Part shown: positions 14,610 to 58,938 of the stretch, one piece after another | Layout: every line of letters starts with the position of its first letter | How positions within the stretch are numbered: the first letter of the stretch is position 1 | IMG/VR virus record: IMGVR_UViG_3300025121_000023 | Location: 32,001-96,000 of that record | Source of the DNA: a virus | Reading direction: 5' to 3' (one strand) | DNA: 64,000 nt | Program-made: the position numbers and the translations under genes | The notes under the pieces: generated by a model | Told to the model about the DNA's origin: nothing | The model's input: only the letters and a program-made list of their open reading frames with translations | Database searches by the model: none

Positions 14610-15887
14610 TCATCTATATTTTTCTTTTAATATTATTTTACCGTTTATTTTTTCGGTTTTTTCTTCTAACTCTGAATTAGGAATCCAACCATGAAAATCA
14701 TCATTCTTATTAATATATGTGCAGTCATCTTTAAGTCTATATTTATCACCATTTCTCCAATCACGTGTTCCAACACTACAATATATAAAATTAGTATCGA
14801 TATCTGATATCCATCTTTTATAAAAATCTGACCATTTAGCATTTGATGTACCACCACCAGCATCATTTAATAATATATCTTCACCATTTTCACCATTTTT
14901 ATAATTAGACAATTTATTTAATGTGTAATTATAATATTTTAATGTATCTAAATACGGGAAATATGTATGTGGTTTTATTCCTATAACTTCTAAACGCGGA
15001 TATTTATCTTTTAAACCTTTTCCACTAATTTCATTTTCTCCTGTACTTTGATGTTTTTTCCAAAACCAATCATTTTGTTTAGCATATTCAATAAATAAAT
15101 CGATTATGTGTGGTTTTTGATAATAAATTCTATCTAAAAAAAATCTTCCATTAAATTGACCACTAAGTTCCCAAACTAATGCCCTAGCTACTATTCTTTC
15201 TCTATTTTCATTTTCAAATAAAATTAATAATCGAACTTTAGGTGAATTTATAGCATAAAATTCTAAGTAATCATTGCAACCATAAGACATACATGACTGA
15301 TTTAATACTGTTTTATTACCGTTAAGTGCATAATGTTTTTGATCATACCACTTTATTATATCTTTACCTGATACTATTTCAAATAAATTATCTGTATTAT
15401 TTAACATTAAAGTATAATTAGATTTATAAAGATTAACAAAAGTTTCAATAGAGTCATATGATCCATTATCTGGGAATCTATCTTTATATAATTTTTTAAC
15501 TAATTTTCCAATTTTCATTTTTGATCTATATTTATCCCATAATTTATTTTTATCATCACGAATAATTTCATAAAAATCTTCGTCATATATTGTTTTAGTT
15601 TTATCTTCATTTTCATAATAATTATTAATATAATCAATTAATTTTGGCGAACTAGTAAAACTAATCATATCATTTTCATCGGTTATATCAATTAAAGTAA
15701 ATGGTTGATTAGAATATGTAGAAATTATCATTCTACTAGCAATTGGATGATCAATACTTTCAATTAAATATCTAAATTTAGCACTAAAAACAAGTTGTAA
15801 ATTTCCTGTATTATTAACCAATAATTCAAATAATTTATCTATGATAAATTCGTTATGTGTTTTTATTAATTTCATTATATTTGTCAA
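14610..15887 (-). CDS. SCM-RALxW-DRIY-PYxD family protein (paralog 1 of 4)
   Basis: HPI, KIGKL, SCM, ARALVW, DRIY, FPYLDT. Confidence 0.75.
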   Translation of the reverse strand: MTNIMKLIKTHNEFIIDKLFELLVNNTGNLQLVFSAKFRYLIESIDHPIASRMIISTYSNQPFTLIDITDENDMISFTSSPKLIDYINNYYENEDKTKTIYDEDFYEIIRDDKNKLWDKYRSKMKIGKLVKKLYKDRFPDNGSYDSIETFVNLYKSNYTLMLNNTDNLFEIVSGKDIIKWYDQKHYALNGNKTVLNQSCMSYGCNDYLEFYAINSPKVRLLILFENENRERIVARALVWELSGQFNGRFFLDRIYYQKPHIIDLFIEYAKQNDWFWKKHQSTGENEISGKGLKDKYPRLEVIGIKPHTYFPYLDTLKYYNYTLNKLSNYKNGENGEDILLNDAGGGTSNAKWSDFYKRWISDIDTNFIYCSVGTRDWRNGDKYRLKDDCTYINKNDDFHGWIPNSELEEKTEKINGKIILKEKYR

Positions 15888-17430
15888 TATCTTCTTTTTT
15901 TACATCATTAAAGTAATAATCACCTTTATATTTATAATAATCATCAGTTGGATCATCCTCATAACTAACTATAAATTTTTGTTTACTATAATCTTTATAG
16001 ATTTTAATATGATTTTTTATATCTACATAAGTAAACAATCTATCTGAATATATACTATCTTCTATTTTAAGCCATTCGTCTGAGAAATTATTATAAACCC
16101 AACCATGATATGGATGTAATCTAACTTTTAATACCCAATCTTTATATTTTTCTATATATTCTGATTCGTTTTTTTGTATCCAAGAATCATGATATTTTGA
16201 TTTAACAAAATATTTATCTATATTATCTTTATGTGTATATCTATGATTAATACTAATATGAACTGCATCTATTTTTTTAATCCATTCATTATTTATAAAA
16301 TCTATAATCCATTCTTTATCAGTCGTTACAAAAACTTGGTTATATCTCTTAGAATATCTTATATTACTTTGACCATATGTATCCCATAATGGTGTATATT
16401 TATTAGATTGTATATGGTTATTATTGTTTGTTAATATCCCGTCATATGGATTATAATTATATAATGTATCTAGAAATGGAAATTGTAATTCATCTGGTTT
16501 AGGGCATTTAATACCTTTAACGACCATTTTAATTTCTACTGATTTATCTTTTTCATAACCATATATAGGACAATCTTCATCACTATTTTGTCTACTTTTA
16601 TGTAAATATCCATTTGATTTAATATATGATAAAAATTTAATTAAATGATTATTTGAATTATAATATATTCTATCTACAAAATATTTATTTTTAACTTGTT
16701 TATCATTTATTTCAGAAAGTTTCCATATTAAAGCTCTACCATCTATTTTACTTTTATCTTTTTCATTATGTAAAATTATCAGTCGTACTGTAGGTGAATT
16801 TATAGCATAAAATTTTAAAAATCCACTACACATAGCTTTATTCATACAAGAATTTGTTAATGGTGTATTTATATCAAAATATGCAATTTGATTTTTATTA
16901 TAATAATGCACAATATCATCACCTTGTACTATTTCGAATAAATCATAATCTTTTGTTAATACAGTGGCATACATGTCCATAAATGATTGTATATCATTAT
17001 CTGGATATCCGTTTGGTTTAAATTCATTAGGAAATAATTTATTTATTAATTTACCTATTTTTATTTTTATTTTATATTTTTTTAATTCATTTTCATAGAA
17101 ATTGATATAGCTTTTAATAGTATAATTATTATAATTATTAATTTTATTAATATCATTGTGTATAATATCTATAATTTTATTAGATGTAATAAAAGATAAT
17201 TTATCTTTTTCGTCATAAATAACATCTAACATCGTTTCTTTTTTATATTCTTCTTCTTTTGATGTTTTTAATAATTTATATGCAATTGGATGTATTATTT
17301 CTTTTAAAATTGCTTTTAAATTATCTGATAAATAAAAAGGTAAAGCACCATCTTTTATTGATAAATCATCAGAATAATATTCTAATATTTTATCTATTCT
17401 ATAATCATCAAAATATTTTATTATTTTCAT
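15853..17430 (-). CDS. SCM-RALxW-DRIY family protein (paralog 2 of 4)
   Basis: HPI, KIGKL, NSCM, GRALIW, DRIY, FPFLDT. Confidence 0.75.
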   Translation of the reverse strand: MKIIKYFDDYRIDKILEYYSDDLSIKDGALPFYLSDNLKAILKEIIHPIAYKLLKTSKEEEYKKETMLDVIYDEKDKLSFITSNKIIDIIHNDINKINNYNNYTIKSYINFYENELKKYKIKIKIGKLINKLFPNEFKPNGYPDNDIQSFMDMYATVLTKDYDLFEIVQGDDIVHYYNKNQIAYFDINTPLTNSCMNKAMCSGFLKFYAINSPTVRLIILHNEKDKSKIDGRALIWKLSEINDKQVKNKYFVDRIYYNSNNHLIKFLSYIKSNGYLHKSRQNSDEDCPIYGYEKDKSVEIKMVVKGIKCPKPDELQFPFLDTLYNYNPYDGILTNNNNHIQSNKYTPLWDTYGQSNIRYSKRYNQVFVTTDKEWIIDFINNEWIKKIDAVHISINHRYTHKDNIDKYFVKSKYHDSWIQKNESEYIEKYKDWVLKVRLHPYHGWVYNNFSDEWLKIEDSIYSDRLFTYVDIKNHIKIYKDYSKQKFIVSYEDDPTDDYYKYKGDYYFNDVKKEDIDKYNEINKNT

Positions 17431-17468
17431 TAATGAAATTCATTTTTTTTTATATTATAAATTATTTT

Positions 17469-18905: not shown

Positions 18906-19014
18906 AATTTTTATTTGTTTTTAATTAATACTAATTTAATGTTTTTTATTTTATAATTTAATAGATATTAATCTATTAAGGAGAATCTTTATTTCTATAT
19001 TTTTTCGGCATATA

Positions 19015-19377: not shown

Positions 19378-19381
19378 AATT

Positions 19382-19662: not shown

Positions 19663-19665
19663 TTT

Positions 19666-20076: not shown

Positions 20077-20121
20077 AATAGTTTGTAAATGTATAAATTA
20101 TTTTTTATATTTCCTAATTTA

Positions 20122-20481: not shown

Positions 20482-21270
20482 TTGACCATCAAATTTTTAT
20501 ATATAGATAATATGGTAGTTAGTGAAACAGTTGAAATAAATATTGAACGTAGAAATATAACTTTTTATAGAAAATTAGGCTATGAGTTAAAAGTTGGAAC
20601 AAAATTAGTAATTCCAGTTAATCAATTAATGATAGGCGCTAAAAATAAAATAAAAATATTTTGTGATATATGTAATATACATTTTTATGTAGTATATAAA
20701 GATTATTTAAATTCTAATAAAAACCATAATTTTGATGTGTGTAATAAATGTAAATTTGAAAAAATTAAAATAACTAATAATAAAAAATATGGGTGTGATT
20801 CACCATTACAAAATAATAAAATATTACAAAAATTTATTGAAACTAATAATAAAAAATATGGTGGAAATTCTTCTAGTAATAGCCAAAAAGTATTAGATAA
20901 ACAAAGAAAAACTAGAATTAAAAATAAAATAGAAATACCATCTGATATACCTATTGGAGAATTTAAAAAATATAGAAACAGAGTAGATACATTTACTAAT
21001 AAAAATAAAAAAGAATTATTTAATAGTTGGAATGGTTATGATTTTTATGATGGAGAATATATTAAAGATAATCTTAAATTACATTTTAATGGTAAAAATT
21101 ATCCTACAATAGAACATAAAACATCTGTATTTTATGGATTTATGAATAAAATATCTGAAGAAGAAATATCCAAATTAGAAAATCTGGCTATTACTAAAAA
21201 AAGTATAAATAGTTCAAGAGGAAATAAAAATTTTGATTTATTCAGAGAAAGTTTTAATAAAATTATTTAA
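20482..21270 (+). CDS. putative HNH-like free-standing endonuclease (likely ATG at 20512)
   Basis: CxxC pairs, KKYG repeats, YPTIEHK...NLAITK.SINS; paralog of 47791..48708. Confidence 0.65.
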   Translation: MTIKFLYIDNMVVSETVEINIERRNITFYRKLGYELKVGTKLVIPVNQLMIGAKNKIKIFCDICNIHFYVVYKDYLNSNKNHNFDVCNKCKFEKIKITNNKKYGCDSPLQNNKILQKFIETNNKKYGGNSSSNSQKVLDKQRKTRIKNKIEIPSDIPIGEFKKYRNRVDTFTNKNKKELFNSWNGYDFYDGEYIKDNLKLHFNGKNYPTIEHKTSVFYGFMNKISEEEISKLENLAITKKSINSSRGNKNFDLFRESFNKII

Positions 21271-22464
21271 GTATTCTTGATATTCTAACTCATTTGGAGA
21301 TTTTGTAATTACCCGAATTAATTGTGGAATAATTTCTCCCTTCTTCGCTATTTCTACTGTACAACCAGGATATACTTTATTTTCTATAATCCAACCTAAA
21401 TTATGTAAACTTGCTCTTTTAACTATTGTGCCATCTAATTCAGTTGGATGAAATAAAGCTATAGGGGTAAGTTCACCATCTTTACCTAAATTCCATATAA
21501 TATCATTTATAACTGTTTCTACTTTATTAGGTACAAATTTAACTGCACAAGCCCAATGAGGATGATGATTATTTTCACCTAATTCTTTCCAATATTTAGG
21601 TGGAAAATTTAATACTATACCATCTAAAGCATATTCACAATTAGCTCTATATTCTTTAAATTTAGGATAAATTTCATTAAAAAAATGATTAAAATTGGTA
21701 GTTTCTAATGAAAATATATCACCAAATCCAATACTTTTAAGAGTATCTAATTGATTTTCTGGTCTAATAATTGTATCACCATCAAATATATCCATTCTAA
21801 AAGCAACAAAGCTCATATCATTAATAATTTCGGTAGGAACACCATCTGGTGTATTTAAAATTCCAGCTAACCAATTACGAGGATTATCAACTTTATTTGG
21901 GTTTGAATATTTTTCTTCCCATATAGCAGTAGGTATAATTACTTCACCTCTAATAACTACTTTTTTAAATACTTTGTATTTATCAGGTAATGTATTAGGA
22001 ACTAATAATTTGATTTTTTCTGTTCGGTCTAAACCGCCACCTTCTTCTTCATTACCACGTGTTAAGGCAATATATAAGCATCCATAGTGGTAATTAATTT
22101 CCATAGAGTTTCCATCAAGTTTAGGTGTGCAAGTTATTATAGGATTTACTACTTTATTAAAAAAGTTTTTAATATCAATAGGATATAATTCTTCATCAAC
22201 AGGTTGAGTAACCTGATATTTTTTTAATGATTGCATTGGAAAGGTATGATGAAAACGTAATTCACGTTCACCTATTTTTAATTCTTCTACTAAATTATAT
22301 TTTGCAAGAATTTCAAGAGATGGACAATCTATAATATTAGGTATTAAAGAACCCATTTCTCGAAGTTCGTTTTCTAATGTATCATAAACAGAATCAGATA
22401 CTTCTGTTTTACCATTGTAATACAGATATTTCCATTTTAATAGAATTTTTTCCTTTTCGTACAT
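21238..22464 (-). CDS. ligA: NAD-dependent DNA ligase (adenylation and OB domains only)
   Basis: YY.G...SD..YD, KLDG, TRG, RGE, NPRN, DGIV, A.KF, ASLHN, GEIIP. Confidence 0.9.
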   Translation of the reverse strand: MYEKEKILLKWKYLYYNGKTEVSDSVYDTLENELREMGSLIPNIIDCPSLEILAKYNLVEELKIGERELRFHHTFPMQSLKKYQVTQPVDEELYPIDIKNFFNKVVNPIITCTPKLDGNSMEINYHYGCLYIALTRGNEEEGGGLDRTEKIKLLVPNTLPDKYKVFKKVVIRGEVIIPTAIWEEKYSNPNKVDNPRNWLAGILNTPDGVPTEIINDMSFVAFRMDIFDGDTIIRPENQLDTLKSIGFGDIFSLETTNFNHFFNEIYPKFKEYRANCEYALDGIVLNFPPKYWKELGENNHHPHWACAVKFVPNKVETVINDIIWNLGKDGELTPIALFHPTELDGTIVKRASLHNLGWIIENKVYPGCTVEIAKKGEIIPQLIRVITKSPNELEYQEYLNNFIKTFSE

Positions 22465-24612: not shown

Positions 24613-25744
24613 TTTTATCATCTTTAATTGATTTCAATCTTATACCTTCATTTTTAATGTTTATTGCTGCGTTTAAATCCCTGTTTAGTACAGAATTGCA
24701 TTTTGAACAAGTCCATTCTCTATCTTTCATAGTTAATTTATCATTTTTAACTCCACAACAACTACATTTTTTTGATGATGGAAAAAATCTATCAATTTGT
24801 ATTACTTCTCTATCATACCATATAGCTTTGTATTCTAAAATTGTTTTAAATTTATTTAATGATAATTCTTGAATTGATTTAGCTAAATGATGATTTTTTA
24901 ACATTCCACTTACATTTAAGTCTTCAATAACTATAGTTTGGTTTTCTCTAAGTAATTGATTAACTACACTATGTAAATAGTTTTCTTTTATATTTGTTAT
25001 TTTTTCATGATATTTTGATAATTTTATCCTTATTTTTTGTTTATTTTTTGAACCTTTTTGTTTTCGTGAAAGCAACTGATTTAACCTTTTAAGTTTTTTT
25101 TCATTATTTCTAGTTGATTTTATATTTTTAAATACTTGGTTATCAGATGATACGATAAAATCTTTTATACCTAAATCAATACCTATAATATTATTTTTAG
25201 GTTTTTGTAATATTTTATTTGGCTTATCAATTAAAATGCTAAAATAATATTTATTTGATTTAGTTTTAGTTAATGTACCAGATTTAATTAAATATTTATT
25301 TTTATTTAAATAAATTTCATCTTGTCTTGAACATTTAAAATGAATATCTTTTAATGGTCTAATTATATTTATTCGATTTCCATTGATTTTACCGATGGCA
25401 TCAACAGGAAATCTACAAGATTGTTTGTTGTGTTTTGATTTAAATTTTGGAAATCCATTACCATTACTAAAAAATGATTTATAAGCAATATCTAAATTAA
25501 CTAAACTCTGTTGTAAAACCTTTGAATGGCTATCTTTTAACCAATTAAATTCTTCGATTGCTTTTAAATTAGTTAAATATTTTCCTGTTTCTACAAAAGA
25601 AACTGATTTTTTATGATTATTATATTGATCAATTTTATGAGCTAAACAATTGTTATAAACAAATCTGGATGATCCAATTAATTTATTCACATAAATTGTT
25701 TGTTCATTATTTAAATATAATCTTGTTTTTATTGCTTTTAACAT
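24545..25744 (-). mobile_element. tnpB: TnpB RNA-guided nuclease (IS200/IS605/IS607 type), no adjacent tnpA
   Basis: N-terminal HTH (RFVYN), RuvC-I GIDLGIK, RuvC-II IEDLNV, CSCC/CSKC Zn ribbon, RuvC-III RDLNAAIN. Confidence 0.93.
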
Positions 25745-25964
25745 TTTTAAATTATTGTTAGTTTTTTACTTACATTATATATTAAATAAAAAATATGATA
25801 TTTTTCCATTTTAAAAAAGTGATTATAATTGACAATATTTTACATTATTTGTCGTTAAAAAATATAAATATACTTAATACTTTTTACTTATATATTTATT
25901 ATAATAAATAGTTTATTTAAAAACAATTTTTTTATATATAATTAATATAAAACTAAATATATAG

Positions 25965-26483
25965 ATGAAAAAATTTAAGGAATTTATTAACGAAAATATA
26001 AAAAGTATACTAAAAGGTAAATCTGATGAAGATGTTATTGAACAATTAAAAAAATTAGATAATAATGAAAGAATTCAAAAAATAATTGAATTACAGTCAT
26101 ATTGGGAATTATTACCAAGAGATTTAAAAGGAGTTTGTATTTTTTTTGGAGATTTAATATTAAATGGTGATGAAGGTCATAATAAATTAGAATTTTTACC
26201 ACCCGATTTTATTGTTACTGGTGATTTAGATGTTAGTTATAATGAAATTAGATATTTACCAAAAAACTTGATAGTTAAGGGTGATTTGGATTGTACAGAT
26301 AATCAATTAACTGAAATACCAAAAGATTTAATTGTTGGTGGTATTTTATATATAGAATATAATTATATAAAGGAAATACCAGAAACTATAAATGCTAGTG
26401 CAATTATATGTAGTAGACAAGACTTAGTACCTAAAAAAAAGGTAAAAAAACCAAAAAATTTTACAGGAAAATTTATTAATTAA
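25965..26483 (+). CDS. LRR protein with CTS-like leader
   Basis: 20-aa LPxNLxVxGDLDxSxNxL repeats; MKKFKEFINE. Confidence 0.75.
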   Translation: MKKFKEFINENIKSILKGKSDEDVIEQLKKLDNNERIQKIIELQSYWELLPRDLKGVCIFFGDLILNGDEGHNKLEFLPPDFIVTGDLDVSYNEIRYLPKNLIVKGDLDCTDNQLTEIPKDLIVGGILYIEYNYIKEIPETINASAIICSRQDLVPKKKVKKPKNFTGKFIN

Positions 26484-26485
26484 TT

Positions 26486-27082
26486 ATGAAAAATTACAAA
26501 CAATTCAACGAAAACAAATTGCCTAAAATAAAAAAAGGTATTAAAGAAATATTAAAACCATTTAAAGAAAATGAAATTGATATATTTGATACATTTAATT
26601 TAGATAAACAAAATTTTAATATAAAAGATTATATAGAAAATCTGTATAATAATGCCGATTTTAATCATAAAATAGAAAAAAAAGGTTTAAAAAAAGGAAA
26701 ACTTCAAGATACTAAATATAATGAAGTATTACTATATGATAGATATGTTCTTAGATTTTTCTTTATTTATAAAAAAGATGCAATCGAAATTGAAGAACCT
26801 AAATTTATTTTAGTTCAATATTATGATAAGAAAAAAAATATATTAAGTTCAATTAAATTATATAAAAATAAAAACAATACCCAAGATTTCTATGAAGATT
26901 TAACTGATGCTACTATCGAAATTGAAAAAGGTGATGATAATTTTATTTATAAAACATCTAATTCTGGAAATAATTGGGAATTAAAAAATCCAAAAGATGT
27001 CCAAGGTGATTTTAAAGACTCATTAGATAAAACAGAAATTAAAAAAATATTAAAAGACAAAAATACAAAAGTGAGTAAATGA
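26486..27082 (+). CDS. hypothetical protein with CTS-like leader
   Basis: MKNYKQFNE. Confidence 0.65.
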   Translation: MKNYKQFNENKLPKIKKGIKEILKPFKENEIDIFDTFNLDKQNFNIKDYIENLYNNADFNHKIEKKGLKKGKLQDTKYNEVLLYDRYVLRFFFIYKKDAIEIEEPKFILVQYYDKKKNILSSIKLYKNKNNTQDFYEDLTDATIEIEKGDDNFIYKTSNSGNNWELKNPKDVQGDFKDSLDKTEIKKILKDKNTKVSK

Positions 27083-27137
27083 AAAAAAAATTTAAATTCA
27101 TTTTAATATAAATTAAAAAACAAAAAAAGATAAATAG

Positions 27138-27589: not shown

Positions 27590-28045
27590 TCATCCAGTAA
27601 TATCTTTAATTTCTTTTTTAGAATCTCTATCTTTGATATAATTTCTTTTATCTGCAACCTTTCTACCTTTTGCTAATGCTATTTCCATTTTAAAAAACCC
27701 TTTATCGTTAGTATAAAGTTTCAATGGAACAATAGATAAACCTTTTTCTTCAATTTCAATTTTTAGTTTAAGCAATTGCTTTTTATGTAATAATAATTTT
27801 CTATCCCTTATAGGATCAACATTATTATAAGAACCTTCTTCTAATATAGATATATTCATACCTTTAATAAATAATTCATTATCGATAAAAATACAATATG
27901 TACCGTTTATGTTAACTTTATTATCTCTTACTGATTTAACTTCTGTGCCTGTTAAAACAATACCAGCTTCGATTTTATTTATAATTTCAAAATCAAAATA
28001 TGCTCGTTTATTTTTAAATGTACTTGTTAATTTTTTCTTTTTCAT
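27590..28045 (-). CDS. smpB: SsrA-binding protein
   Basis: NKRA.FD, EAGIVLTGTEVKS, RKLLLHK, VPL, GRK..DKR. Confidence 0.95.
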   Translation of the reverse strand: MKKKKLTSTFKNKRAYFDFEIINKIEAGIVLTGTEVKSVRDNKVNINGTYCIFIDNELFIKGMNISILEEGSYNNVDPIRDRKLLLHKKQLLKLKIEIEEKGLSIVPLKLYTNDKGFFKMEIALAKGRKVADKRNYIKDRDSKKEIKDITG

Positions 28046-50985: not shown

Positions 50986-52581
50986 ATGATTTTGTCTAAG
51001 TATGTTAATATAAAGATTTCTAATAATTTAATTAATTATTATACTATTTTAAATTATGAATTTAATTCTAATGAAATTATAAAAGTATTAGTTAAAGATT
51101 TACCTAAAAACAGTAGTCATAAAGTTAAAGTTAAATGTGATATTTGCAATAATGAAAAAGAAATATCATTAAATAGATATATAATTAATACTAAAAATAA
51201 AACATTACCTTATGCATGTAGTAGAATGTGTGCTGAAATAAAAAATAAAAATACGTGTTTAAAAAAATATGGAGTTGATAATATATCAAAATTGGATTTT
51301 ATTAAAAATAAAAAAGAAAAAACTTGTTTAGATAATTTTGATGTTAAGTATCCACAACAATCTAATGAAATTTTTTTAAAATCAAAAAAAACTAAAAAAG
51401 AAAAATATAATAACGAAAATTATAATAATTCGAAAAAAAGAAAAAAAACTAATATAGATAAATATGGTTTCATATCACCAACACAAAATGAACATATTAT
51501 TAAAAAAATAAAAGATAAACAATTTATATTTTATAAAAATATTATATTAAATAAATATAAACATTTAAATATAATAGATTATGATATTGATGATAAATAT
51601 ATTTTAAAATGTGATTGTGGAAAAAATCATAATTTCAAAATACATTATAAATTAATATGGCATAGATCTAAAAACAATAGTCCTTTATGTACTATATGCA
51701 ATCCGATTAGCAAAAATATATCAGGATTAGAAATATCATTATTAAATTTTATAAAAGAAAACTATAAAGAAGAAATTATTATAAATAATAGAAATATAAT
51801 AAATCCTTATGAATTAGATATTTATTTACCCGATTTAAAATTAGCATTTGAATTTAATGGACTATATTGGCATAATGAATTAAATAAAGATAAAAATTAT
51901 CATAAAAATAAATCTGATTTATGTGAAGAAAAAGGAATTCAATTAATTCATATTTACGAAGACGATTGGATTTATAAACAAGATATAATTAAATCAATGA
52001 TATTAAATAAGTTAGGTAAAACATCAAATAGAATATTTGCAAGAAAAACTGAAATAAAGGAAGTAACAGATAACAATTTAGTTAGAGAATTTTTAGAAGA
52101 AAATCACATTCAAGGATTTGTTGGTTCAAAAGTTAAAGTAGGATTATTTTATAAAGATGAATTAGTTAGTTTAATGACTTTTGGTAAAACCAGAAAACCA
52201 CTCGGGCAAAAAAATAATGATAAATCATATGAAATGTTAAGATTTTGTAATAAACTAAATACAAATGTAATTGGAGGGGCAAGTAAACTATTTGAATATT
52301 TTATTAAAAATTATGAATTTGAAGAAATAATAACATATGCAGATAGAAGTCATTCGAATGGTAAATTATATAAAATATTGGGATTCAAATTTATACATAA
52401 AACCGATTCAAATTATTATTATATTATAGATGGAATAAAACATTATAGATTTGGATTTAGAAAAGATATTTTAGTTAAAGAAGGATATGATGCAAACAAA
52501 ACAGAACACGAAATTATGTTAGAAAGAAATATTTATAGAATTTATAATTCTGGTAATTTAAAATTTAAATATTTAAGATAA
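50986..52581 (+). CDS. free-standing endonuclease (Hef-like), paralog of 42154..43800
   Basis: Highly similar C-terminal half. Confidence 0.75.
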   Translation: MILSKYVNIKISNNLINYYTILNYEFNSNEIIKVLVKDLPKNSSHKVKVKCDICNNEKEISLNRYIINTKNKTLPYACSRMCAEIKNKNTCLKKYGVDNISKLDFIKNKKEKTCLDNFDVKYPQQSNEIFLKSKKTKKEKYNNENYNNSKKRKKTNIDKYGFISPTQNEHIIKKIKDKQFIFYKNIILNKYKHLNIIDYDIDDKYILKCDCGKNHNFKIHYKLIWHRSKNNSPLCTICNPISKNISGLEISLLNFIKENYKEEIIINNRNIINPYELDIYLPDLKLAFEFNGLYWHNELNKDKNYHKNKSDLCEEKGIQLIHIYEDDWIYKQDIIKSMILNKLGKTSNRIFARKTEIKEVTDNNLVREFLEENHIQGFVGSKVKVGLFYKDELVSLMTFGKTRKPLGQKNNDKSYEMLRFCNKLNTNVIGGASKLFEYFIKNYEFEEIITYADRSHSNGKLYKILGFKFIHKTDSNYYYIIDGIKHYRFGFRKDILVKEGYDANKTEHEIMLERNIYRIYNSGNLKFKYLR

Positions 52582-54087
52582 TTCTTTTTCTAATTGTTTT
52601 AGTTCTCTTTCATAATCTTTTAATTCTTCATTAGCATCCATCATCATTTTTTTATATTTTTTACGTTCTTTATAAATTTCAGCCATAACTTGTTTAACTA
52701 CACCATCTTCATTTTTAAATACAGCACCATTTAATGTTATGATATCATCTTTATCTAATTGAATTTTATGACCATTAAATATTGAATATACTGGTTCATC
52801 AGTATTATGTAATTGTTTAATTATATCATAAATTGTTTTGCCTTTATCTTTTAATAATTGTCCTTTATAACTATCAGCACTAATATTAAATTGTCTCATT
52901 GTAGTCGGATACAATGATGCAAAATCGAAACAACAAGTCCAACTATTCATTCCAACAATAGGGTCTTTAACCCAACCACCTTTAACTAATAATTCAACAT
53001 CGTTTGTAACATCACTATGTGTATTATCTTTAACAAATACTACATTTTTTTCATTTCTCATTTTACTTCTTAATATTCCTTCAGTAACGGGTAATGTTTT
53101 AAAAGCATCTGTTATTTTAACTTTTGATAATGTAGATATACCATATAAAACATCAATATATCTTTGTTTATTGTGTATTTGTTGTACTAGAATTGAATCG
53201 ACAGCATTGTATAAAACAAATTTAGTATAATCATTTGCATATAAATATTTTAAATTTCCTTCATAATTAATTTTTTTCACACCTAATATATTTTGAGATA
53301 CAAAATCTAGTGAATTAGACTCCTTGACCTTAATTGTTGAATCCCATTTTGCATATAATTCCATATAATCTACTATTATTCTATGTGCAGGAAGTTCAGA
53401 ATTATCATTTTCTTCCCATGCTTTTCTCAATACACCAGTAAAAGAAGATATTGTCGGATCAATTCCTAAATTTCGTGCTCTATTAACAAGATACACCCAA
53501 TCATAACTAATTACATACCAACCTGTTATAACTGGCATCTTTGGTATAAGAACTTTGAAAAAATTCAGTAACATATCATATTCACTATCATATTGTTTAT
53601 ATAGAAATTCATATTTTGTACCGAATTTTTCAAATTGGTTATTAATGTTACTTTCTACAGAATCAGATTGTGATTTATTAAATTTTTTAGTTCCTATAAC
53701 AAGTACTTTATTTTTATTAACTATTGATATAGTTTGAACTTCCCCGTTTGCTTTTAATGGATTAATTTTTTCATCTAAAATCTCATTTTCTATATCCACA
53801 AAAAATATTTCAGGTTCATTATATTCGAATATCATTTCTTTTTCTTCATTAGGTAATGCATCTAAAAAATCATAAACACTATAACGGTTGGGATATCGGC
53901 TGTAAATTTCTTTCACCGTATTACCATTCCAGGTGACAAATTTACCATGTCTATCTCTATCATCTTCTTCACATATTATAAATTTTGTCGGATTTGGCCA
54001 ATTATAATATTTAAGTTTGATACTACCATGTTTATCTATATAACTTACAATAAGTTTTTGTGATCTAAATTCATAATCTACGAGCAT
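52573..54087 (-). CDS. family B DNA polymerase, exonuclease plus motif A part (split gene)
   Basis: ExoI VDIE, ExoII GW....YD, ExoIII YNAVD, motif A DFASLYP; motifs B and C absent. Confidence 0.85.
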   Translation of the reverse strand: MLVDYEFRSQKLIVSYIDKHGSIKLKYYNWPNPTKFIICEEDDRDRHGKFVTWNGNTVKEIYSRYPNRYSVYDFLDALPNEEKEMIFEYNEPEIFFVDIENEILDEKINPLKANGEVQTISIVNKNKVLVIGTKKFNKSQSDSVESNINNQFEKFGTKYEFLYKQYDSEYDMLLNFFKVLIPKMPVITGWYVISYDWVYLVNRARNLGIDPTISSFTGVLRKAWEENDNSELPAHRIIVDYMELYAKWDSTIKVKESNSLDFVSQNILGVKKINYEGNLKYLYANDYTKFVLYNAVDSILVQQIHNKQRYIDVLYGISTLSKVKITDAFKTLPVTEGILRSKMRNEKNVVFVKDNTHSDVTNDVELLVKGGWVKDPIVGMNSWTCCFDFASLYPTTMRQFNISADSYKGQLLKDKGKTIYDIIKQLHNTDEPVYSIFNGHKIQLDKDDIITLNGAVFKNEDGVVKQVMAEIYKERKKYKKMMMDANEELKDYERELKQLEKELS

Positions 54088-54189
54088 TCTATTTAATGGT
54101 TTTTTTTGTTTATAACCCCATAATCTTTTAACATTTTTTGGGTTTTAAAATTTTATATATGCTTATATAAAAATAATATTATTTAGTTT

Positions 54190-54476
54190 ATGGATAAATA
54201 AGGAAAATTTTTAATAAAAGCATTTAAAAAACATAGTCAAAAATATGATTATAGTTTAGTTAAAAATAAAAATTATAGAATAAAGATTAAAATAATTTGT
54301 TAAGAACACGATGAACTTAATCAAGAACTATTAAATTATTTAAGATGATAAGACTGCCCAAAATATGTAGGTGTTAAAAAAAGTACAAAAGATGATTTTG
54401 TACAAAATGCAAGTATAATTCATAATAATAAATATTATTATTCGAAAATTGTATATAAAAATAACAAAAATGAAAA
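54190..54476 (+). pseudogene. decayed endonuclease of the 33578 family
   Basis: MDK*GKF...KKHSQKYDYSLV...IKIIC*EH...**DCPK...IHNNKY with in-frame stops. Confidence 0.7.
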
Positions 54477-54477
54477 A

Positions 54478-54891
54478 TTATTTACCAAAACCCATTTTCC
54501 TAAAATCTGGTTCAATTGTTGGTATAGGATGACCGTTTCTATCTAAATCACCTGGCATACCATCTTGTAAATACGCACCACTTTCATGTGGGACATCATT
54601 TTCATCATAAGGTGGACGACACACAGTAGGATTATCTTCTTTTGATTCTAGAACATCTTCTTCCCAATCATAATCAAATTCAATTTCATATTTATTTAAT
54701 ATTGATTTTAATCTAGAAGCATCTAAGTCATCTGTTATAACAATTTTAAACGGTTCTTTGACATCTATTGTATGTTTAGTTACTTTTTTACTAGTATCCC
54801 ATGAACGTATAGCTCTACTATTTTCATCGCTAAATAGGTTTTCTATTCCTTCATTAACAAATTTTTTAAAATTGGTTTTTAAATATTTCAT
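54478..54891 (-). CDS. hypothetical protein with CTS-like leader
   Basis: MKYLKTNFKKFVNE. Confidence 0.65.
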   Translation of the reverse strand: MKYLKTNFKKFVNEGIENLFSDENSRAIRSWDTSKKVTKHTIDVKEPFKIVITDDLDASRLKSILNKYEIEFDYDWEEDVLESKEDNPTVCRPPYDENDVPHESGAYLQDGMPGDLDRNGHPIPTIEPDFRKMGFGK

Positions 54892-54924
54892 GTTTTGTTT
54901 TTAATTTTTATTATATATTAAATA

Positions 54925-55716
54925 TTACAATGTATTTTTAAATATATACGCTACTAAATCATTAGCAGCTTTTTGGTCTTTACCACCAATATGCCACATA
55001 ATACTATCTGTTTTAATTTCATTAATAGGTTTATATTCTTTATAATCATAAATATATAAAAGATCACCATTTTCTGATATTACATTCCAATTAAAAATAG
55101 TTCTATAATCTTCTCCGTAATCTGGTTCGCCAAATAATTTTACTAAATCATCATATTGTGCTTCTACTTCACTAAGTTTCCAACCACTATCACTTATTTT
55201 AGTAGATGTAAAAATAACATCTGGATTTCCTGGCAAGTTTTTTAATATTTCTTCTTTTGATTTAGGTTTTAGTATGTTTCTTATATTTTCGTTTAAAGTT
55301 CTATAATAAATATATGCTAATAAATTATTCTTATCTATAGGGTTTGTACCACCAATATGCCATTTAAATGATAACATATTTTTTAATTTTACTGCTAAAT
55401 AACCTGATGTATCGTCATAAATACTAACTGTTCTTCCACTAGTAGTTTTAAGTGTCCATATAAAATTATTACCAGCTCTTCTACTTTTTTTATTTGCCCA
55501 TCTTCTTTCTGGTTCACCAAATAATTTTACTAAATCATCATAAGATGTTTCAATATAACCTAATAAAAATATTCCTGCTAGTCCTTTTAATCTAGTAGGA
55601 ATGAATGATGCATTTGGATCACCTGTAGTTGATATTGCTTTAATCATTTCATCATTAGATTTCGGTTGAAGTAAATCTTTTACACTTTCTTTATATTGTT
55701 TATATGTCTTTATCAA
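54925..55716 (-). CDS. protein with tandemly duplicated domain and CTS-like leader
   Basis: Two copies of YDDLVKLFGEP..W..IYD..WHIGG. Confidence 0.7.
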   Translation of the reverse strand: MIKTYKQYKESVKDLLQPKSNDEMIKAISTTGDPNASFIPTRLKGLAGIFLLGYIETSYDDLVKLFGEPERRWANKKSRRAGNNFIWTLKTTSGRTVSIYDDTSGYLAVKLKNMLSFKWHIGGTNPIDKNNLLAYIYYRTLNENIRNILKPKSKEEILKNLPGNPDVIFTSTKISDSGWKLSEVEAQYDDLVKLFGEPDYGEDYRTIFNWNVISENGDLLYIYDYKEYKPINEIKTDSIMWHIGGKDQKAANDLVAYIFKNTL

Positions 55717-56219
55717 AATAAAAGTCCTCCTTTTACACCTTTTGGTTTTTTTGTATCTTTTGGTAACAGATTATCATGACAATATAAATCACCTTTAACA
55801 ACTAAATTTTCTGGTAATTTTTTTAATTGATTATATCTACAATCTAAATAACCTTTAACAATTAAATTATCAGGTAAACTTTTTAACCTATTAAAACTAC
55901 AATTTAAATCACCTTCAACAACTAAATTTTCAGGTAAATTAGTTAATTTATTATCATAACAATATAAATAACCTTCAACAGTTAAATTATCAGGTAAACT
56001 AGTTAATTGATTATTACTACAATTTAAATTTCCATAATAAGTACAAATACCTTTGTTATTTCTAGGTAGTAAATCGTAATCTAATTGATATTTAATTATT
56101 ATATATTCAATTTTTTTATTATCAGATAATCCTTCTAATGCTTTAATCATTTCATCTTTAGATTTCGGCTGAAGTAAATCTTTTACTGACTCATTATATT
56201 GTTTATATGTTTTTATCAT
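55713..56219 (-). CDS. LRR protein with CTS-like leader
   Basis: 20-aa (60-bp) repeats. Confidence 0.8.
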   Translation of the reverse strand: MIKTYKQYNESVKDLLQPKSKDEMIKALEGLSDNKKIEYIIIKYQLDYDLLPRNNKGICTYYGNLNCSNNQLTSLPDNLTVEGYLYCYDNKLTNLPENLVVEGDLNCSFNRLKSLPDNLIVKGYLDCRYNQLKKLPENLVVKGDLYCHDNLLPKDTKKPKGVKGGLLF

Positions 56220-56779
56220 AATATAAAATCTCCTGTTACTCCTTTTGGTTTTTTAATATCTTTTGGCAATAGATTATCATAACAAATTAAATAACCATCA
56301 ACAACTAAATTTTCAGGCAAACTAGTTAACTTATTATATCTACAATCTAAATCACCATTAACAGTTAAATTTTTTGGTAAAATAGTTAATTCATTAAAAC
56401 TACAATTTAAATAACCATTAACAATTAAATTATCAGGCAAACTAGTTAACTTATTATATCTACAATCTAAATCACCATTAACAACTAAATTTTCTGGTAA
56501 ACTAGTTAATTTATTATCACTACAATTTAAATTACCATTAACAACTAAATTGTCAGGCAAACTAGTTAATTCATAAATACTACAATTTAAATGACCATAA
56601 TAAGTACAAATACCTTCGCTATTTCTAGGTAATAAAGAATAATCTAATTGATATTGAATTATTATATATTCAATTTTTTTATTATCAGATAATCCTTCTA
56701 ATGCTTTTTTTACATCTTCATTAGATTTCGGTTGAAGTAAATCTTTTACTGATTCGTTATATTGTTTAAAAGTTTTCAT
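56216..56779 (-). CDS. LRR protein with CTS-like leader
   Basis: 20-aa repeats, one more than its neighbour. Confidence 0.8.
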   Translation of the reverse strand: MKTFKQYNESVKDLLQPKSNEDVKKALEGLSDNKKIEYIIIQYQLDYSLLPRNSEGICTYYGHLNCSIYELTSLPDNLVVNGNLNCSDNKLTSLPENLVVNGDLDCRYNKLTSLPDNLIVNGYLNCSFNELTILPKNLTVNGDLDCRYNKLTSLPENLVVDGYLICYDNLLPKDIKKPKGVTGDFIL

Positions 56780-56793
56780 ATTTTTTAATTATA

Positions 56794-56994
56794 TTAAATA
56801 AAATAATCAATTTCATCAGATGCTTCATTTATAATAATATCTATAAATTTTTTTTCATTTTCTGATAAGTTATTATACCAATTTGCAATTTCTAATTTTA
56901 TATTATCATCTAATTGTGTTTTAAAAAAAAATAATCCACTATTGTTAATTATTTCATTATCTGATTTTAATTTATTAAATAATTTAATTTTCAT
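56794..56994 (-). CDS. hypothetical protein
   Basis: ORF in operon. Confidence 0.5.
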   Translation of the reverse strand: MKIKLFNKLKSDNEIINNSGLFFFKTQLDDNIKLEIANWYNNLSENEKKFIDIIINEASDEIDYFI

Positions 56995-57003
56995 AATTAT
57001 ATT

Positions 57004-57285
57004 TTATTTTACAGTTATATCATAACTTTCGTGTTGTCCATAATAAATTCCACCAATTGTACCAGAAAAAAATAATCTATAAATACCTGGTTCAGTAAAT
57101 GTTATTGTAAAATTATCATCACAAAAAACTGTTAAATCATCACTTCTTCTACGATATTGACAATTTTCTGGAATTGCACCAGAAATAAGTTTTAATTGAA
57201 TTTTTTCATTAAGAACTATTGGTGAAAGAATAGTTACCAATGCTGACATACTTACACCCATACTTACATTACTTTTATCACTCAT
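57004..57285 (-). CDS. hypothetical beta-rich protein
   Basis: FTEPGIY PKD/Ig-like motif. Confidence 0.5.
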   Translation of the reverse strand: MSDKSNVSMGVSMSALVTILSPIVLNEKIQLKLISGAIPENCQYRRRSDDLTVFCDDNFTITFTEPGIYRLFFSGTIGGIYYGQHESYDITVK

Positions 57286-57290
57286 ATAAT

Positions 57291-58676
57291 TTAATCTTTT
57301 GTTTTTATAAATTTTTGAAGTTCTCTTAACTTATTATAATCTGGTTTATCTTTATCTAATTCGTCATTAATAATATTTTCAAGTTCTCCTTGACTCATAT
57401 TAATATAACTTTTTTCTTTATTAACTTTTTCTTCTTTTGGTTCAATTGATTCTGGTCTTGGCAATCTCTGTGCTCGTTGTAATGGTTCTTCATAAATTTC
57501 TTCTTTGTATGTTTCGGTAGGTTCTTCTAATATTGCTAAAACATTTTCAACAATTTTATATCTTCTCATTAATATATCAGATTGATCTATATCTCCACTT
57601 AATATTATCTTAATTAATTCAACAAAATCTTTATCTTTAAGCATAATTAATTCACCATAAATAAATTCTTTAATTGCTATTCTACTTACTTCTAATGGAA
57701 ATTTTCTTTCTAAATAACTATTAAAATAATCTCTTAAATCAGCAGCAATAAAAGGACCATATTTGATATCTTCTTGTTCATCTTCTAATGAATCAACAGC
57801 ATTTAATAATTTTTTAGCCATTTTTTCGTTTTCTGGTATTGCATTAGCTGCCATTAATTCATAAATTGCTTTAACTGTTTCGTGAATAAGCATAGGTAAA
57901 TCTAGTACTCTTACTTTAATTACTGGTGTCATATCTTCTTGTTCTCCTTCACTTCGATCTTCACTTTGATCTTCGCCTTTATTACTTTTCTTATTTGATT
58001 TTTTCCAATCAATTTCACTCATATTCGCCATTTCTGGCATTTCTTCCATCATATCACTTAAATCTGGCTTATTTGGATCCCAGTCAAATTTTCTATTTAT
58101 ATTTAAAAATTCTGTATAGTCCTGTAATAATCTTGGATCTATTGCATCTACCTTATCTTTTGCAGCAAACATCATACTATGAACATTTTGTGCTTCACCT
58201 TGCATAATATTATTTAAAATTTTTCTTTTACTAATACTTTCCTCCGGCAATTCAAATGTATTTTCTATATCAAAATCAGAATTATAATTAATTTCATTAT
58301 CTTCATCATCTTCATCATTTTCATCATCATCATCTTTTTCTTCTTTTTCTGGTTTATTTATAGCTTTTTGAACCATTTCCATTTTTTCTGAATCATCAGG
58401 TAAAACTATTTTAATATCAAGTTCAACACCATCTAATATAGATCCATAATGGTCTAATATTATTTGTTTTCCGATTTCTGTTAATTCTTCAAGATGTCCT
58501 TGTTGTTTTATCATTATATCTTGTGTTAATCTCATAGCATTCATAAAATCATTACGTTGAGGACCACTACCAAACATTTTTATAGATTTTTCTTCTATAT
58601 TTTTAAGATAATCTTCTGGAAGAGTATCTTTAATATTAGCTTCAAATAATTCATTAAACCTTTTTAATTTTTTCAT
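57291..58676 (-). CDS. hypothetical protein (possible virion protein), CTS-like leader, HExxK motif
   Basis: MKKLKRFNELFE; LIHETVK; acidic linkers. Confidence 0.65.
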   Translation of the reverse strand: MKKLKRFNELFEANIKDTLPEDYLKNIEEKSIKMFGSGPQRNDFMNAMRLTQDIMIKQQGHLEELTEIGKQIILDHYGSILDGVELDIKIVLPDDSEKMEMVQKAINKPEKEEKDDDDENDEDDEDNEINYNSDFDIENTFELPEESISKRKILNNIMQGEAQNVHSMMFAAKDKVDAIDPRLLQDYTEFLNINRKFDWDPNKPDLSDMMEEMPEMANMSEIDWKKSNKKSNKGEDQSEDRSEGEQEDMTPVIKVRVLDLPMLIHETVKAIYELMAANAIPENEKMAKKLLNAVDSLEDEQEDIKYGPFIAADLRDYFNSYLERKFPLEVSRIAIKEFIYGELIMLKDKDFVELIKIILSGDIDQSDILMRRYKIVENVLAILEEPTETYKEEIYEEPLQRAQRLPRPESIEPKEEKVNKEKSYINMSQGELENIINDELDKDKPDYNKLRELQKFIKTKD

Positions 58677-58677
58677 T

Positions 58678-58938
58678 TTATTTAGAATATTTATTTTTTA
58701 AGAAATTTTCTATTTCTTTATCACCTTTAGATAATTCTAAAAACTTATTTGCAACTTCTTTAACAGTTGCTTTTGGTCTAGGATTTATTGAAGGTTTATC
58801 TCTTCTTATAGGTGAAGGTCTACCAGGTACTGTATTAGGTTTAACTCCTGGTTTAGTTATTGGTTTTACTGTTGGTTCAGCTACATCTATTTCTACACCT
58901 TCTTGTAAGAAAATTTTAAACGATTTTATTTTTTTCAT
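58678..58938 (-). CDS. Pro-rich small protein with CTS-like leader
   Basis: MKKIKSFKIFLQE. Confidence 0.65.
   Translation of the reverse strand: MKKIKSFKIFLQEGVEIDVAEPTVKPITKPGVKPNTVPGRPSPIRRDKPSINPRPKATVKEVANKFLELSKGDKEIENFLKNKYSK

Follow-up and report, generated by a model that had tools for sequence, protein, structure and literature searches.

The question raised by this locus is why a DeoC-type aldolase should begin with much the same short sequence as LRR proteins and many products of no assigned function, and whether that sequence directs them into a phage capsid. The window, i.e., the whole stretch of DNA analyzed, comprises 64,000 nucleotides (positions 32,001 to 96,000 of IMG/VR record IMGVR_UViG_3300025121_000023) and is part of a 112.6-kb contig of 22% GC. 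The contig is a fragment of a huge uncultured phage, kin of the 735-kb "Mahaphage" LR756501, and represents about 23% of the whole phage genome. [quoted passage not shown]

RESULTS

Frequency and conservation of the N-terminal motif

The tag has the form M-K-x(0-4)-[FY]-x-x-[FY]-[ILV or none]-N/x-E and stands at the start of twelve ORFs in the window and of about 18 to 20 in the contig. All 10 ORF starts quoted in the earlier note were found at the positions and with the residues given, and its pattern was matched by 19 of the 154 contig ORFs; the set was recovered in the window but is not confined to the range assigned to it, as eight more contig ORFs belong to it. A core pattern, [FY]-x-x-[FY]-x(0-3)-E within the first 20 residues, was present in 20/154 contig ORFs, compared with a rate of 4.1% in internal 20-residue windows and a mean of 8.5 (maximum, 17) after 500 shuffles of the N termini, and the tight form occurred in 12 contig ORFs versus 2.3 in shuffles (maximum, 8). 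When a 10-column matrix trained on LR756501 only was applied to the contig, 14 N termini scored at least 10 bits (0.27 expected from the internal rate) and 11 ORF starts scored at least 14 bits, a value reached at 0 of 30,440 internal positions of the called proteins; when all six frames of the contig were scanned at this threshold, 11/12 matches lay no more than nine codons from the start of a long ORF. Together with the verified starts, the enrichment over shuffles and internal positions confirms that the shared motif is real and far above chance.

The tag was counted in 108 of the 1022 LR756501 ORFs and in six ORFs of a cultured Chryseobacterium jumbo phage, and relatives of 32% and 36% GC also carry it; it was not found in AT-rich Lak-C1 or in the PTm1 sample. 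Codons in the conserved columns are used as in the genome as a whole, and F and Y, like I, L and V, replace one another freely there, showing that the tag is conserved and selected at the amino-acid level and not at the DNA level.

Tagged genes and their kin

Table 1. Tag-bearing ORFs and internal relics in the window, with scores from the LR756501-trained matrix (ORFs are named in the text by their first coordinate)
Coordinates	Strand	Feature	Candidate leader	Leader end	Score (bits)
14610-15875	-	Loose-tag paralog of 43835/45654 family			3.3
15853-17430	-	Loose-tag paralog of 43835/45654 family			-3.1
25965-26483	+	LRR protein, 172 aa	25965-25994	F-I-N-E (predicted cut after residue 10)	24.2
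26486-27082	+	198-aa protein	26486-26512	F-N-E	18.2
28467-29303	+	278-aa protein	28467-28502	F-V-N-E	18.5
29389-30249	+	DeoC/LacD-family aldolase	29389-29427	F-I-T-E	19.0
31131-31190	+	Internal relic in ORF 30291-31406		L-N-E, then S-I-K-D-I-L module	
43835-45667	+	610-aa protein, virus-only paralog family	43835-43882	I-L-E	11.8
45654-47237	+	527-aa paralog of 43835	45654-45692	L-F-E	17.0
54478-54891	-	137-aa protein	54850-54891	F-V-N-E	16.4
54925-55716	-	263-aa protein	55687-55716		13.0
55267-55305	-	Internal relic in 54925		L-N-E	
55713-56219	-	LRR protein, 168 aa	56190-56219	Y-N-E	16.0
56216-56779	-	LRR protein, 187 aa	56753-56779	Y-N-E	17.1
57291-58676	-	461-aa protein, weaker tag			8.3
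58678-58938	-	86-aa protein	58900-58938	F-L-Q-E	15.8

The carriers had been called unrelated, which holds to the extent that the 14 ORFs make up about nine families but not for three LRR paralogs (25965, 55713 and 56216) or for four paralogs of a virus-only family. In that family, which falls into virus-only clusters in the Atlas, the leaders proposed for 43835 (a longer variant) and 45654 stand, whereas those of the remaining pair are loose; both have a longer N terminus with L or I at P3 of a Glu at residue 17, and their membership in the tag set is uncertain. Five tagged ORFs have about 20 further residues in common past the tag. Such a module of about 20 residues is shared by 28467 with the LRR trio, and 28467 is 62% identical to 25965 over the N-terminal 29 residues; 55713 and 56216 are 67% identical. 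The protein of 57291 is strongly acidic (net charge, -43) and has Leu in place of the first aromatic residue, followed by F-N-E, then L-F-E, and then A; no Pfam or PHROG family and no relatives in viral_contigs were found for it.

Between orthologs, the tag is present on both members of a pair or on one alone. The LR756501 homologs of 26486 (476705) and 43835 (65144) are tagged, as is the DeoC ortholog (337628), which is 41% identical to 29389. The BLAST match of 26486, which has no Pfam or PHROG family, begins past the tag, and in 29389 a linker of about 40 residues separates the tag from the enzyme domain (Pfam DeoC, 3.9e-14, residues 81 to 274). ORF 30291-31406 has no N-terminal tag, and over its first 165 residues it shares 46% identity with N-terminally tagged LR756501 455943. 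Tagless kin of 45654, namely, LR756501 439318 and a contig paralog (genome positions 24813 to 27089), align from about 20 residues into the 45654 protein. The product of 54925, which starts at a TTG codon with GGAGG just upstream, consists of two DUF7738-like modules in tandem (DUF7738, 9.2e-5, under the Pfam cutoff), and its relic lies ahead of the second. Close metagenomic homologs of 56216 keep the tag, and distant LRR homologs lack it; its AlphaFold2 model is an LRR solenoid (pLDDT, 91.7) with Foldseek matches to IpaH, SspH1 and Leptospira LRR domains, and the tag is modeled as a low-confidence helix (residues 4 to 14; pLDDT below 50 for residues 1 to 7) set apart from the confident LRR fold. 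Orthologs that differ in the tag, a tagless paralog and relics at fusion joints show that the tag behaves as a portable module, much as the earlier note had proposed, and that orthologs acquire and lose it.

The predicted cargo of LRR proteins and a metabolic enzyme is represented by the LRR trio and the DeoC-family aldolase. Tagged LR756501 proteins include PPK2, CoaE, DeoC, radical SAM enzymes and a kinase, an odd cargo for a capsid, in addition to GNAT and methyltransferase proteins; at about 10% of the proteome, the list is also very large, a second point against a capsid destination. The mean charge of the tagged proteins is acidic (-3.1 per 100 residues), which likewise speaks against that destination, the T4 internal proteins being basic. 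No window gene with a recognizable role in replication, repair or translation is tagged; DnaJ, SmpB, Prs, DNA ligase, DNA polymerase, methylase and TnpB, among others, lack the motif, which is therefore not equally common among replication ORFs.

In LR756501, a promoter-like motif, ATATATAG, lies upstream of 32/108 tagged genes versus 51/914 others (P about 1e-12) and also precedes the tail sheath gene and three tail fiber genes, so that enrichment behind a promoter-like motif common to tail genes is evident there; in the contig, it is weak (3/18 tagged versus 2/136 others). The motif is often just 12 nt from the ATG, and the mRNAs may therefore be nearly leaderless.

Comparison with the T4 capsid-targeting sequence and head genes

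The capsid-targeting sequences of T4 IPI, IPII, IPIII and Alt are removed by gp21 (Mullaney and Black 1996, reviewed in PMC9026906 and PMC7411985), which cuts after L/I-x-E; no more than the first 10 residues of IPIII are required, residues 4 and 7 serving targeting and residues 8 and 10 serving processing (PMC9026906). The four conserved columns of the tag equal these mapped residues (Y, F, I and E), and its end equals the gp21 motif followed by a small residue. P3 of the terminal Glu, which the search pattern left free, is I/L/V in 43/48 and 16/26 LR756501 leaders (background, 23%) and in 7/7 of the main class in the contig, and P1' in LR756501 leaders is mostly A and S. P3 is F or Y, not I/L/V, in 5/12 window tags, which tells against the capsid reading. 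The LR756501-trained matrix placed ipIII second, ipII third and ipI fifth among 271 T4 ORFs, a ranking that is partly circular because the T4 tag had guided the choice of training pattern, leaving only the unconstrained columns as independent evidence; an unselected matrix, drawn from all ORFs, was too weak to rank T4 proteins. First place went to gp61.1, which is not a known virion protein, and the motif alone therefore need not mean packaging.

No head genes or protease are present on the 112.6-kb contig, which covers about 23% of the genome; the source phage would have head machinery like that of its relatives. These encode matches to Portal_T4 (1e-69) and Gp23 (1.8e-25) and an 807-aa protease-scaffold protein that aligns with T4 gp21 (E, 2e-7), retains the G-E-x-x-H-P and V-S-S-R motifs and has I-V-E at residue 9, opposite the gp21 self-cleavage site L-I-E-9; the S77 match in LR756501 is under the Pfam cutoff. 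The DNA polymerases of the relatives through which this link to head machinery runs are at most 56% identical to that of the contig, a further point against the capsid reading. T4 gp23 loses 65 residues on maturation, i.e., is cut after F-L-T-E, and the aligned capsid-protein site reads F-L-N-E then S in the cultured phage MA9V-2 and I-I-N-E then S in PTm1; the tags of MA9V-2 end in the same tetrapeptide as its capsid-protein maturation site. In LR756501, the aligned site is L-N-Q, itself at odds with a capsid role, and M-N-E lies nine residues upstream. MA9V-2 has a tagged 82-aa ORF between its portal and protease genes and another tagged ORF between its head completion and DNA end protector genes.

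DISCUSSION

Each of the computational tests favored the reading of the earlier note. We consider it likely that the shared N terminus serves as a leader for capsid targeting and processing of the T4 type, with a prohead-protease site, and the dozen or so tagged proteins probably enter the virion and reach the host together with the DNA. We infer docking, cleavage, packaging and ejection as follows. The tag would form an amphipathic helix of 9 to 16 residues, with a hydrophobic stripe of [ILV] at residue 2, the aromatics three apart and [ILV] next, which would dock the protein on the scaffold or protease core during prohead assembly; a gp21-family protease would then cut after the final Glu ([ILV or FY]-x-E, then a small residue), the cut peptide would exit the head, and the mature cargo would remain with the DNA and enter the host at infection. 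The tag would mark a variable cargo of LRR proteins, the DeoC-type aldolase and many function-unassigned proteins; a gene could acquire it or lose it, and after gene fusion it could persist as an internal joint.

It is less probable, indeed unlikely, that the helix is a signal that sorts or docks its carriers at a noncapsid destination, for instance a hub protein, a chaperone or a compartment built by the phage, and that it arose from the T4 tag or by convergence with it. The breadth and acidity of the cargo (about 10% of the LR756501 proteome, including PPK2, CoaE, DeoC and a kinase), the motif on T4 gp61.1, the DnaK, DnaJ and ClpB-like chaperones encoded by phages of the group and the major-vault-protein homolog of LR756501 would suit such a signal, but the tag ends in the head protease motif and in the MA9V-2 capsid maturation tetrapeptide, tagged ORFs lie within the MA9V-2 head gene cluster, tagged and tail genes of LR756501 have a promoter-like motif in common, and there are phages that carry the tag but have no vault homolog. 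Common ancestry alone, in which an expanded family or a recombination hot spot conserved a first helix with no targeting role, seems to us decidedly improbable: some carriers are paralogous, five share the additional residues and tagged genes stand in tandem arrays, but past the tag the families, the DeoC aldolase and LRR solenoid of the window among them, have no detectable similarity, the LR756501 carriers span PPK2, CoaE, radical SAM, GNAT and methyltransferase proteins, orthologs differ just in tag presence, and conservation is at the amino-acid level. There is very little to recommend a RiPP-like leader recognized by a modifying enzyme such as a radical SAM maturase; two tagged LR756501 proteins are radical SAM enzymes, but no such enzyme or other maturase is among the 25 of 31 Pfam families listed for the untagged ORFs of the window, the carriers are folded proteins of 86 to 610 residues and not short precursors, and the motif agrees with a T4 tag of known function. 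Scarcely credible is an artifact of AT-rich composition or translation-start preference (Lys, Asn, Phe, Tyr and Ile codons), as might be suspected from the low GC content, the enrichment of Lys at residues 2 to 5 across all ORFs and the closeness of the promoter-like motif to the ATG, since it is contradicted by the N-terminus shuffles, which remove the signal (12 versus 2.3; 90 versus 11.9), by the motif's persistence at 32 to 36% GC and absence from AT-rich Lak-C1 and the PTm1 sample, and by synonymous codons that vary as they do genome-wide.

The putative capsid-targeting leader resembles that of T4 in its N-terminal position, length of about 10 residues, M-K start, aromatics at 4 and 7 and [ILV]-x-E end before a small residue, in being borne by otherwise unrelated proteins, and in the gp20, gp21 and gp23 homologs of the relatives, with a capsid maturation site that has the ending of the tag. 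It differs in scale (about 12% of contig ORFs and 108 LR756501 proteins versus a handful in T4), in carriers that are mostly acidic, are enzymes or LRR proteins and reach 843 residues, whereas those of T4 are small and basic, in a P2 that is usually Asn, in a Met-to-first-aromatic distance that varies by up to 4 residues, in a protease fused, in the relatives, to a long coiled-coil scaffold-like region, and in hosts predicted to be Bacteroidota.

Short amphipathic helices with flexible linkers also guide diverse enzymes into protein shells as encapsulin cargo-loading peptides, which are usually C terminal, and as bacterial microcompartment encapsulation peptides, and encapsulin shells have the HK97 fold in common with phage capsids. 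Their likeness to the proposed role of the tag lies in this guidance, but their sequences are unlike the tag, and we know of no protease removal or delivery to another cell in these systems. Phages phiKZ, 201phi2-1 and SPN3US resemble the present case in having many head-internal proteins cut after Glu by a gp21-related protease and paralogous ejection-protein families with conserved N termini; in contrast, their propeptides are mostly longer than 100 residues with no common short tag, the cut site is S/A/G-x-E, and the processed proteins number eight to about 19, not a hundred (PMC5694885, PMC7411985).

Occurrence of the N-terminal leader

Some 14 ORFs of the window had been described in an earlier note as opening with two aromatic residues followed by Glu, after the manner of a T4 capsid targeting sequence, and the ORF starts that it quoted are all present as stated; 12 of the ORFs bear the leader, with predicted lengths of 9 to 16 residues, and two, at 14610-17430, have a loose version only. 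ORF 54925-55716 has a TTG start codon, preceded by GGAGG. An aromatic core and then Glu were found in the first 20 residues of 20 of the 154 ORFs of the contig, against 4.1% of internal windows and 8.5 ORFs when each N-terminus was shuffled; a composition artefact was rejected on these shuffles. The conserved columns follow genome-wide codon usage; conservation at the nucleotide level was rejected on this ground, and selection is taken to act on the peptide.

Scanning with a 10-column matrix, built solely from the relative LR756501 to keep the window out of training, confined the signal to N-termini: 14 contig N-termini reached at least 10 bits (0.27 expected) and 11 at least 14 bits, compared with 0 of 30,440 internal positions. 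In a six-frame scan of the contig at the higher threshold, 11 of the 12 matches lay no more than nine codons from where a long ORF starts. The only internal tag with a high score (16.9 bits) lies outside the window, from contig position 112396 onward (window-equivalent 80396, plus strand), 359 codons into an ORF running off the contig end; it ends F-I-N-E, followed by S, and may mark either a joint between fused genes or a site of internal processing.

The window spans bases 32001-96000 of a single virus contig of 112,560 bp (22% GC; completeness 23% by CheckV), whose DNA polymerase is 28-43% identical to those of other 460-640-kb phages, of Lak phages and of the Chryseobacterium phage MA9V-2. 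LR756501 is a 735-kb uncultured phage, and genomes of its type are placed in the Mahaphage clade, with hosts predicted to be Bacteroidetes (Al-Shayeb et al. 2020); that paper makes no mention of a shared leader. In LR756501 (32% GC), 90 ORFs fit the tight pattern, against 11.9 in shuffles (maximum, 23), 108 of 1022 ORFs score at least 10 bits, and the combined frequency of Phe and Tyr over all ORFs, unselected, peaks at residues 5 and 8 (17% against 9.9%). MA9V-2 (36% GC) has six tags against 0.27 expected, and variants are present in samples of LR756502 and LR756500. No tag of at least 10 bits was found in a 41-kb sample of the AT-rich Lak-C1 (TAG read as Gln), nor any tag in 29 kb sampled from Tenacibaculum phage PTm1, although its head module is the same; PTm1 is thus unsuitable as a test case.

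Coordinates of the features discussed
Feature	Location	Strand	Evidence or content
DeoC/LacD aldolase	window 29389-30249		PF01791, 53.3 bits against a cut-off of 23.8, residues 81-274
Family-B DNA polymerase	window 52573-54087	minus	56% identical to the LR756501 polymerase
Tagged-gene array	window 54088-58938		unrelated cargo
Tagged-gene array	LR756501 93714-97317		unrelated cargo
Adjacent head genes	LR756501		T4-type portal (1e-69), 807-residue protein, Gp23-type capsid protein (1.8e-25)
Capsid-like ORF	contig 21215-21640, outside window		141 residues; 29% identity over 103 residues to part of the LR756501 major capsid protein, E 1e-9
Predicted vault-like protein	LR756501 17179-19608 (L004)	minus	809 residues; major vault protein shoulder, repeat domains and SPFH/Band 7 (1.2e-28, 4.9e-11, 9.3e-6)
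Tandem paralogues	window 6169-8144	minus	five, of approximately 85-97 residues
Gene 61.1	T4 AF158101 18966-19130		hypothetical 54-residue gp61.1

Anatomy of the leader and comparison with T4

The consensus is M-[ILV]-K-K-[FY]-x-x-[FY]-[ILV]-N-E in LR756501 and M-K-x-[FY]-K-x-[FY]-([ILV])-N-E in the contig; the strongest columns are the two aromatics, three residues apart, the first of which is replaced by Leu in ORF 57291. The position two before Glu (P3) was left free in the search pattern. It is I, L or V in 43 of 48 and 16 of 26 LR756501 leaders of two classes unconstrained at P3 (background, 23%) and in all seven main-class leaders of the contig; at this position F or Y takes its place in five window leaders. 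The residue after Glu (P1') is mostly Ala or Ser in LR756501. Window leaders are amphipathic, carry charges and contain no run of hydrophobic residues; they thus lack the core of at least 10 hydrophobic residues that follows a basic N-region in a Sec, Tat or lipoprotein signal peptide. In the AlphaFold2 model of ORF 56216-56779, from a 27-sequence alignment, residues 1-14 are predicted, at low confidence, as a helix standing apart from the leucine-rich-repeat (LRR) fold.

The capsid targeting sequence of T4, known since 1996, is an N-terminal sequence of roughly 10 residues that a single cleavage removes (PMC8442874). The first 10 residues of IPIII suffice, residues 4 and 7 (Tyr and Phe) serving in targeting and residues 8 and 10 in processing, and the protease gp21 cuts after L/I-x-E (PMC9026906). 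These four IPIII residues are the four conserved columns of the leader described here, which, like the T4 tag, sits at the extreme N-terminus, has a length in keeping with the 10-20 residues expected of such a tag, ends in the gp21 motif and is borne by proteins unrelated beyond it. We consider that the leader is probably a T4-type targeting and processing tag, with packaging, cleavage and ejection predicted for its carriers.

Applied to all 271 T4 ORFs, the LR756501 matrix ranked ipIII second, ipII third and ipI fifth. Its training pattern descends from a T4-inspired one, and agreement is independent only in the unconstrained columns, namely, Lys before the aromatics, I/L/V at P3 and a small P1'; a matrix derived from the complete LR756501 ORF set without selecting for the motif was too diffuse to place the T4 internal proteins in order, and the ranking is therefore partly circular. 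First place went to gp61.1, whose N-terminus fits the tag better than those of the internal proteins and ends I-K-E; gp61.1 may be an unrecognized tagged protein or a sign that the motif does not suffice for packaging.

Cargo and alternative readings

The proposal that the tagged set includes LRR proteins and a metabolic enzyme was borne out: it contains three LRR proteins and, judged by its Pfam domain, a DeoC-family aldolase encoded by ORF 29389-30249. The LRR trio (25965, 55713 and 56216) shares the repeat consensus L-x-x-L-x-x-N-x-L in the 27-sequence alignment, and its Pfam LRR matches fall below the cut-off; ORF 56216-56779 is modeled as a confident LRR solenoid (pLDDT 91.7) that matches the LRR domains of IpaH, SspH1 and Leptospira proteins with Foldseek E values of 3e-4 and weaker. 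The remaining tagged window cargo comprises a protein with a DUF7738-like tandem and proteins that have no family assignment. Pfam and PHROGs yielded almost nothing for the tagged proteins beyond DeoC and the weak LRR matches; the family of ORF 45654 was represented in the Atlas by virus-only unnamed clusters and nothing else, and ORF 57291 had no relatives in viral_contigs. In LR756501, 105 tagged proteins fall into 21 Pfam families, compared with 59 for 105 length-matched untagged proteins, and the tagged families include PPK2, CoaE, DeoC, radical SAM, methyltransferase, GNAT and kinase.

The untagged window ORFs include those for DnaJ, SmpB, Prs, Tpt1, DNA ligase, DNA polymerase, methylase and TnpB; as these recognizable genes lack it, the tag is not distributed evenly across genes for replication and housekeeping. 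The earlier note would have abandoned its reading had the motif been equally common among replication ORFs, but the recognizable DNA ligase, DNA polymerase and methylase are untagged.

The T4 internal proteins IPI-III are small and highly basic, whereas the 12 tagged window carriers range from 86 to 610 residues with net charges of -43 to +10, and LR756501 carriers average -3.1 charges per 100 residues; window carriers and T4 internal proteins have the tag in common but not the protein class. Cargo that is acidic and includes housekeeping-type enzymes counts against loading into the capsid, and to our knowledge a hundred cargo species would be unprecedented. These properties favor a reading in which the same helix directs proteins to a destination other than the capsid, which we regard as unlikely.

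That the N-terminus reflects mere shared ancestry is less probable, given that the 14 window ORFs divide into about nine families. The carriers had been called unrelated; this holds to the extent of those families and their diverse Pfam domains, but the 14 ORFs are not all separate families. A single gene family was rejected on the same count and on the diversity of LR756501 carriers. The aldolase, ORF 26486 and ORF 43835 are tagged in both the contig and LR756501; ORF 45654 and the ORF at window-equivalent 69603 are tagged in the contig only, and the N-terminal domain of ORF 30291 is tagged in LR756501 only. Where orthologues differ in this way, the alignment begins directly after the tag. 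The 43835 family has a fifth paralogue without a tag. Relic tags ending L-N-E or V-N-E occur at internal joints of 30291, 54925 and a metagenomic LRR homologue, which fits gene fusion and possibly internal cutting.

It is more doubtful still that the tag is a RiPP-like leader recognized by a maturase, since no radical SAM or comparable enzyme appears among the Pfam families listed (25 of 31) for the 58 untagged window ORFs. A start-region artefact is scarcely credible, with 12 tight forms in the contig against 2.3 in N-terminal shuffles.

Head machinery and expression of tagged genes

A T4-type targeting and processing tag would be cut by a gp21-like protease. No Peptidase_S77 and no head machinery were found on the 112-kb contig, which is 23% complete by CheckV; a Peptidase_S77-type protease is present in LR756501 and, as annotated, in MA9V-2 and PTm1. 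The first 150 residues of the LR756501 807-residue head protein match Peptidase_S77 weakly, and its N-terminal part is 26% identical to T4 gp21 (pairwise BLAST, E 2e-7); phmmer found no match to the domain among PDB sequences. The motifs G-E-x-x-H-P and V-S-S-R, which we take to be the sites of the catalytic His and Ser, are kept. The protein has I-V-E at residue 9, where T4 gp21 has L-I-E-9, its own self-cleavage site (PMC9026906). T4 gp23 loses 65 residues (PMC9958956), which in its sequence places the cut after F-L-T-E. At the aligned position MA9V-2 has F-L-N-E then S, an ending shared with its own tags, and PTm1 has I-I-N-E then S; LR756501 is more ambiguous there, with L-N-Q and, nine residues upstream of it, M-N-E. 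Of the MA9V-2 tags, one is on an 82-residue ORF that separates the portal gene from the protease gene, where T4 has genes 67 and 68, and a second is on an ORF flanked by the head completion and DNA end protector genes. Virion protein data in the MA9V-1 paper consist of SDS-PAGE only. The contig also has a capsid-like ORF.

Within 80 nt upstream, the LR756501 8-mer ATATATAG precedes 32 of 108 tagged genes, compared with 51 of 914 others (P ~1e-12), usually 12 or ~28 nt before the ATG. The same 8-mer stands before the tail sheath gene and three collagen-like tail fibre genes, and close variants lie upstream of the head genes; in the contig, the 8-mer is upstream of 3 of 18 tagged and 2 of 136 other genes. 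A promoter-like motif of LR756501, T-rich sequence plus AATATATAG, stands upstream of 83 genes at a constant distance of 12 nt or ~28 nt from the ATG, and the 12-nt class would give nearly leaderless mRNAs. In both genomes, a tagged-gene array lies directly upstream of the DNA polymerase gene.

Significance

The genomes of huge phages hold hundreds of genes whose function is unknown, and no member of the Mahaphage clade has been cultured. If the tag marks capsid cargo, about a tenth of the unknown genes would fall into one class, acting in the first moments of infection. We tentatively put forward, at somewhat under even confidence, that phages of the Mahaphage clade, the largest known, bear a T4 tag on a tenth of the proteome and inject more than 100 head-loaded proteins as a ready-made starter proteome. 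Among the injected proteins would be LRR binders, aldolase, polyphosphate kinase, CoA and nucleotide kinases, radical SAM enzymes and acetyl- and methyltransferases, together with dozens whose function is unknown. Were this so, the tag would be a sequence-only readout of injected cargo in uncultured phages, and it suggests very large heads as carriers of enzymes and binding proteins, beyond the small anti-restriction proteins of T4. We found no published description of a T4-type tag in huge phages; new here are its occurrence in the Mahaphage clade, on approximately 10% of ORFs, and a cultured phage for testing. MA9V-2 is in culture and has six clear tags, two of them in the head gene cluster, so that the prediction is directly testable. 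The tag could also be put to use in loading foreign proteins into phages of Bacteroidota, a use that the T4 tag already has in E. coli phages.

Other features of LR756501 and the contig

A motif D-[PE]-[YF]-G-E-E, often followed by x-W, occurs at many positions in 92 of the 1022 LR756501 ORFs (loci L004-L040, whole genome), 28 of which are also N-terminally tagged; it is absent from the contig and MA9V-2. LR756501 also encodes what its domain matches identify as a vault-like protein in a phage. Proteins encoded at window 27590-28045, 5211-6155, 480-1565 and elsewhere include SmpB, ribose-phosphate pyrophosphokinase and DnaJ; further genes specify Tpt1/KptA, an NAD-dependent DNA ligase, two GCV_H-like proteins, a class II aminoacyl-tRNA synthetase-like protein and TnpB. 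The five tandem paralogues are near-identical over their first 23 residues, and this segment recurs at the C-terminus of ORF 6804-7229.
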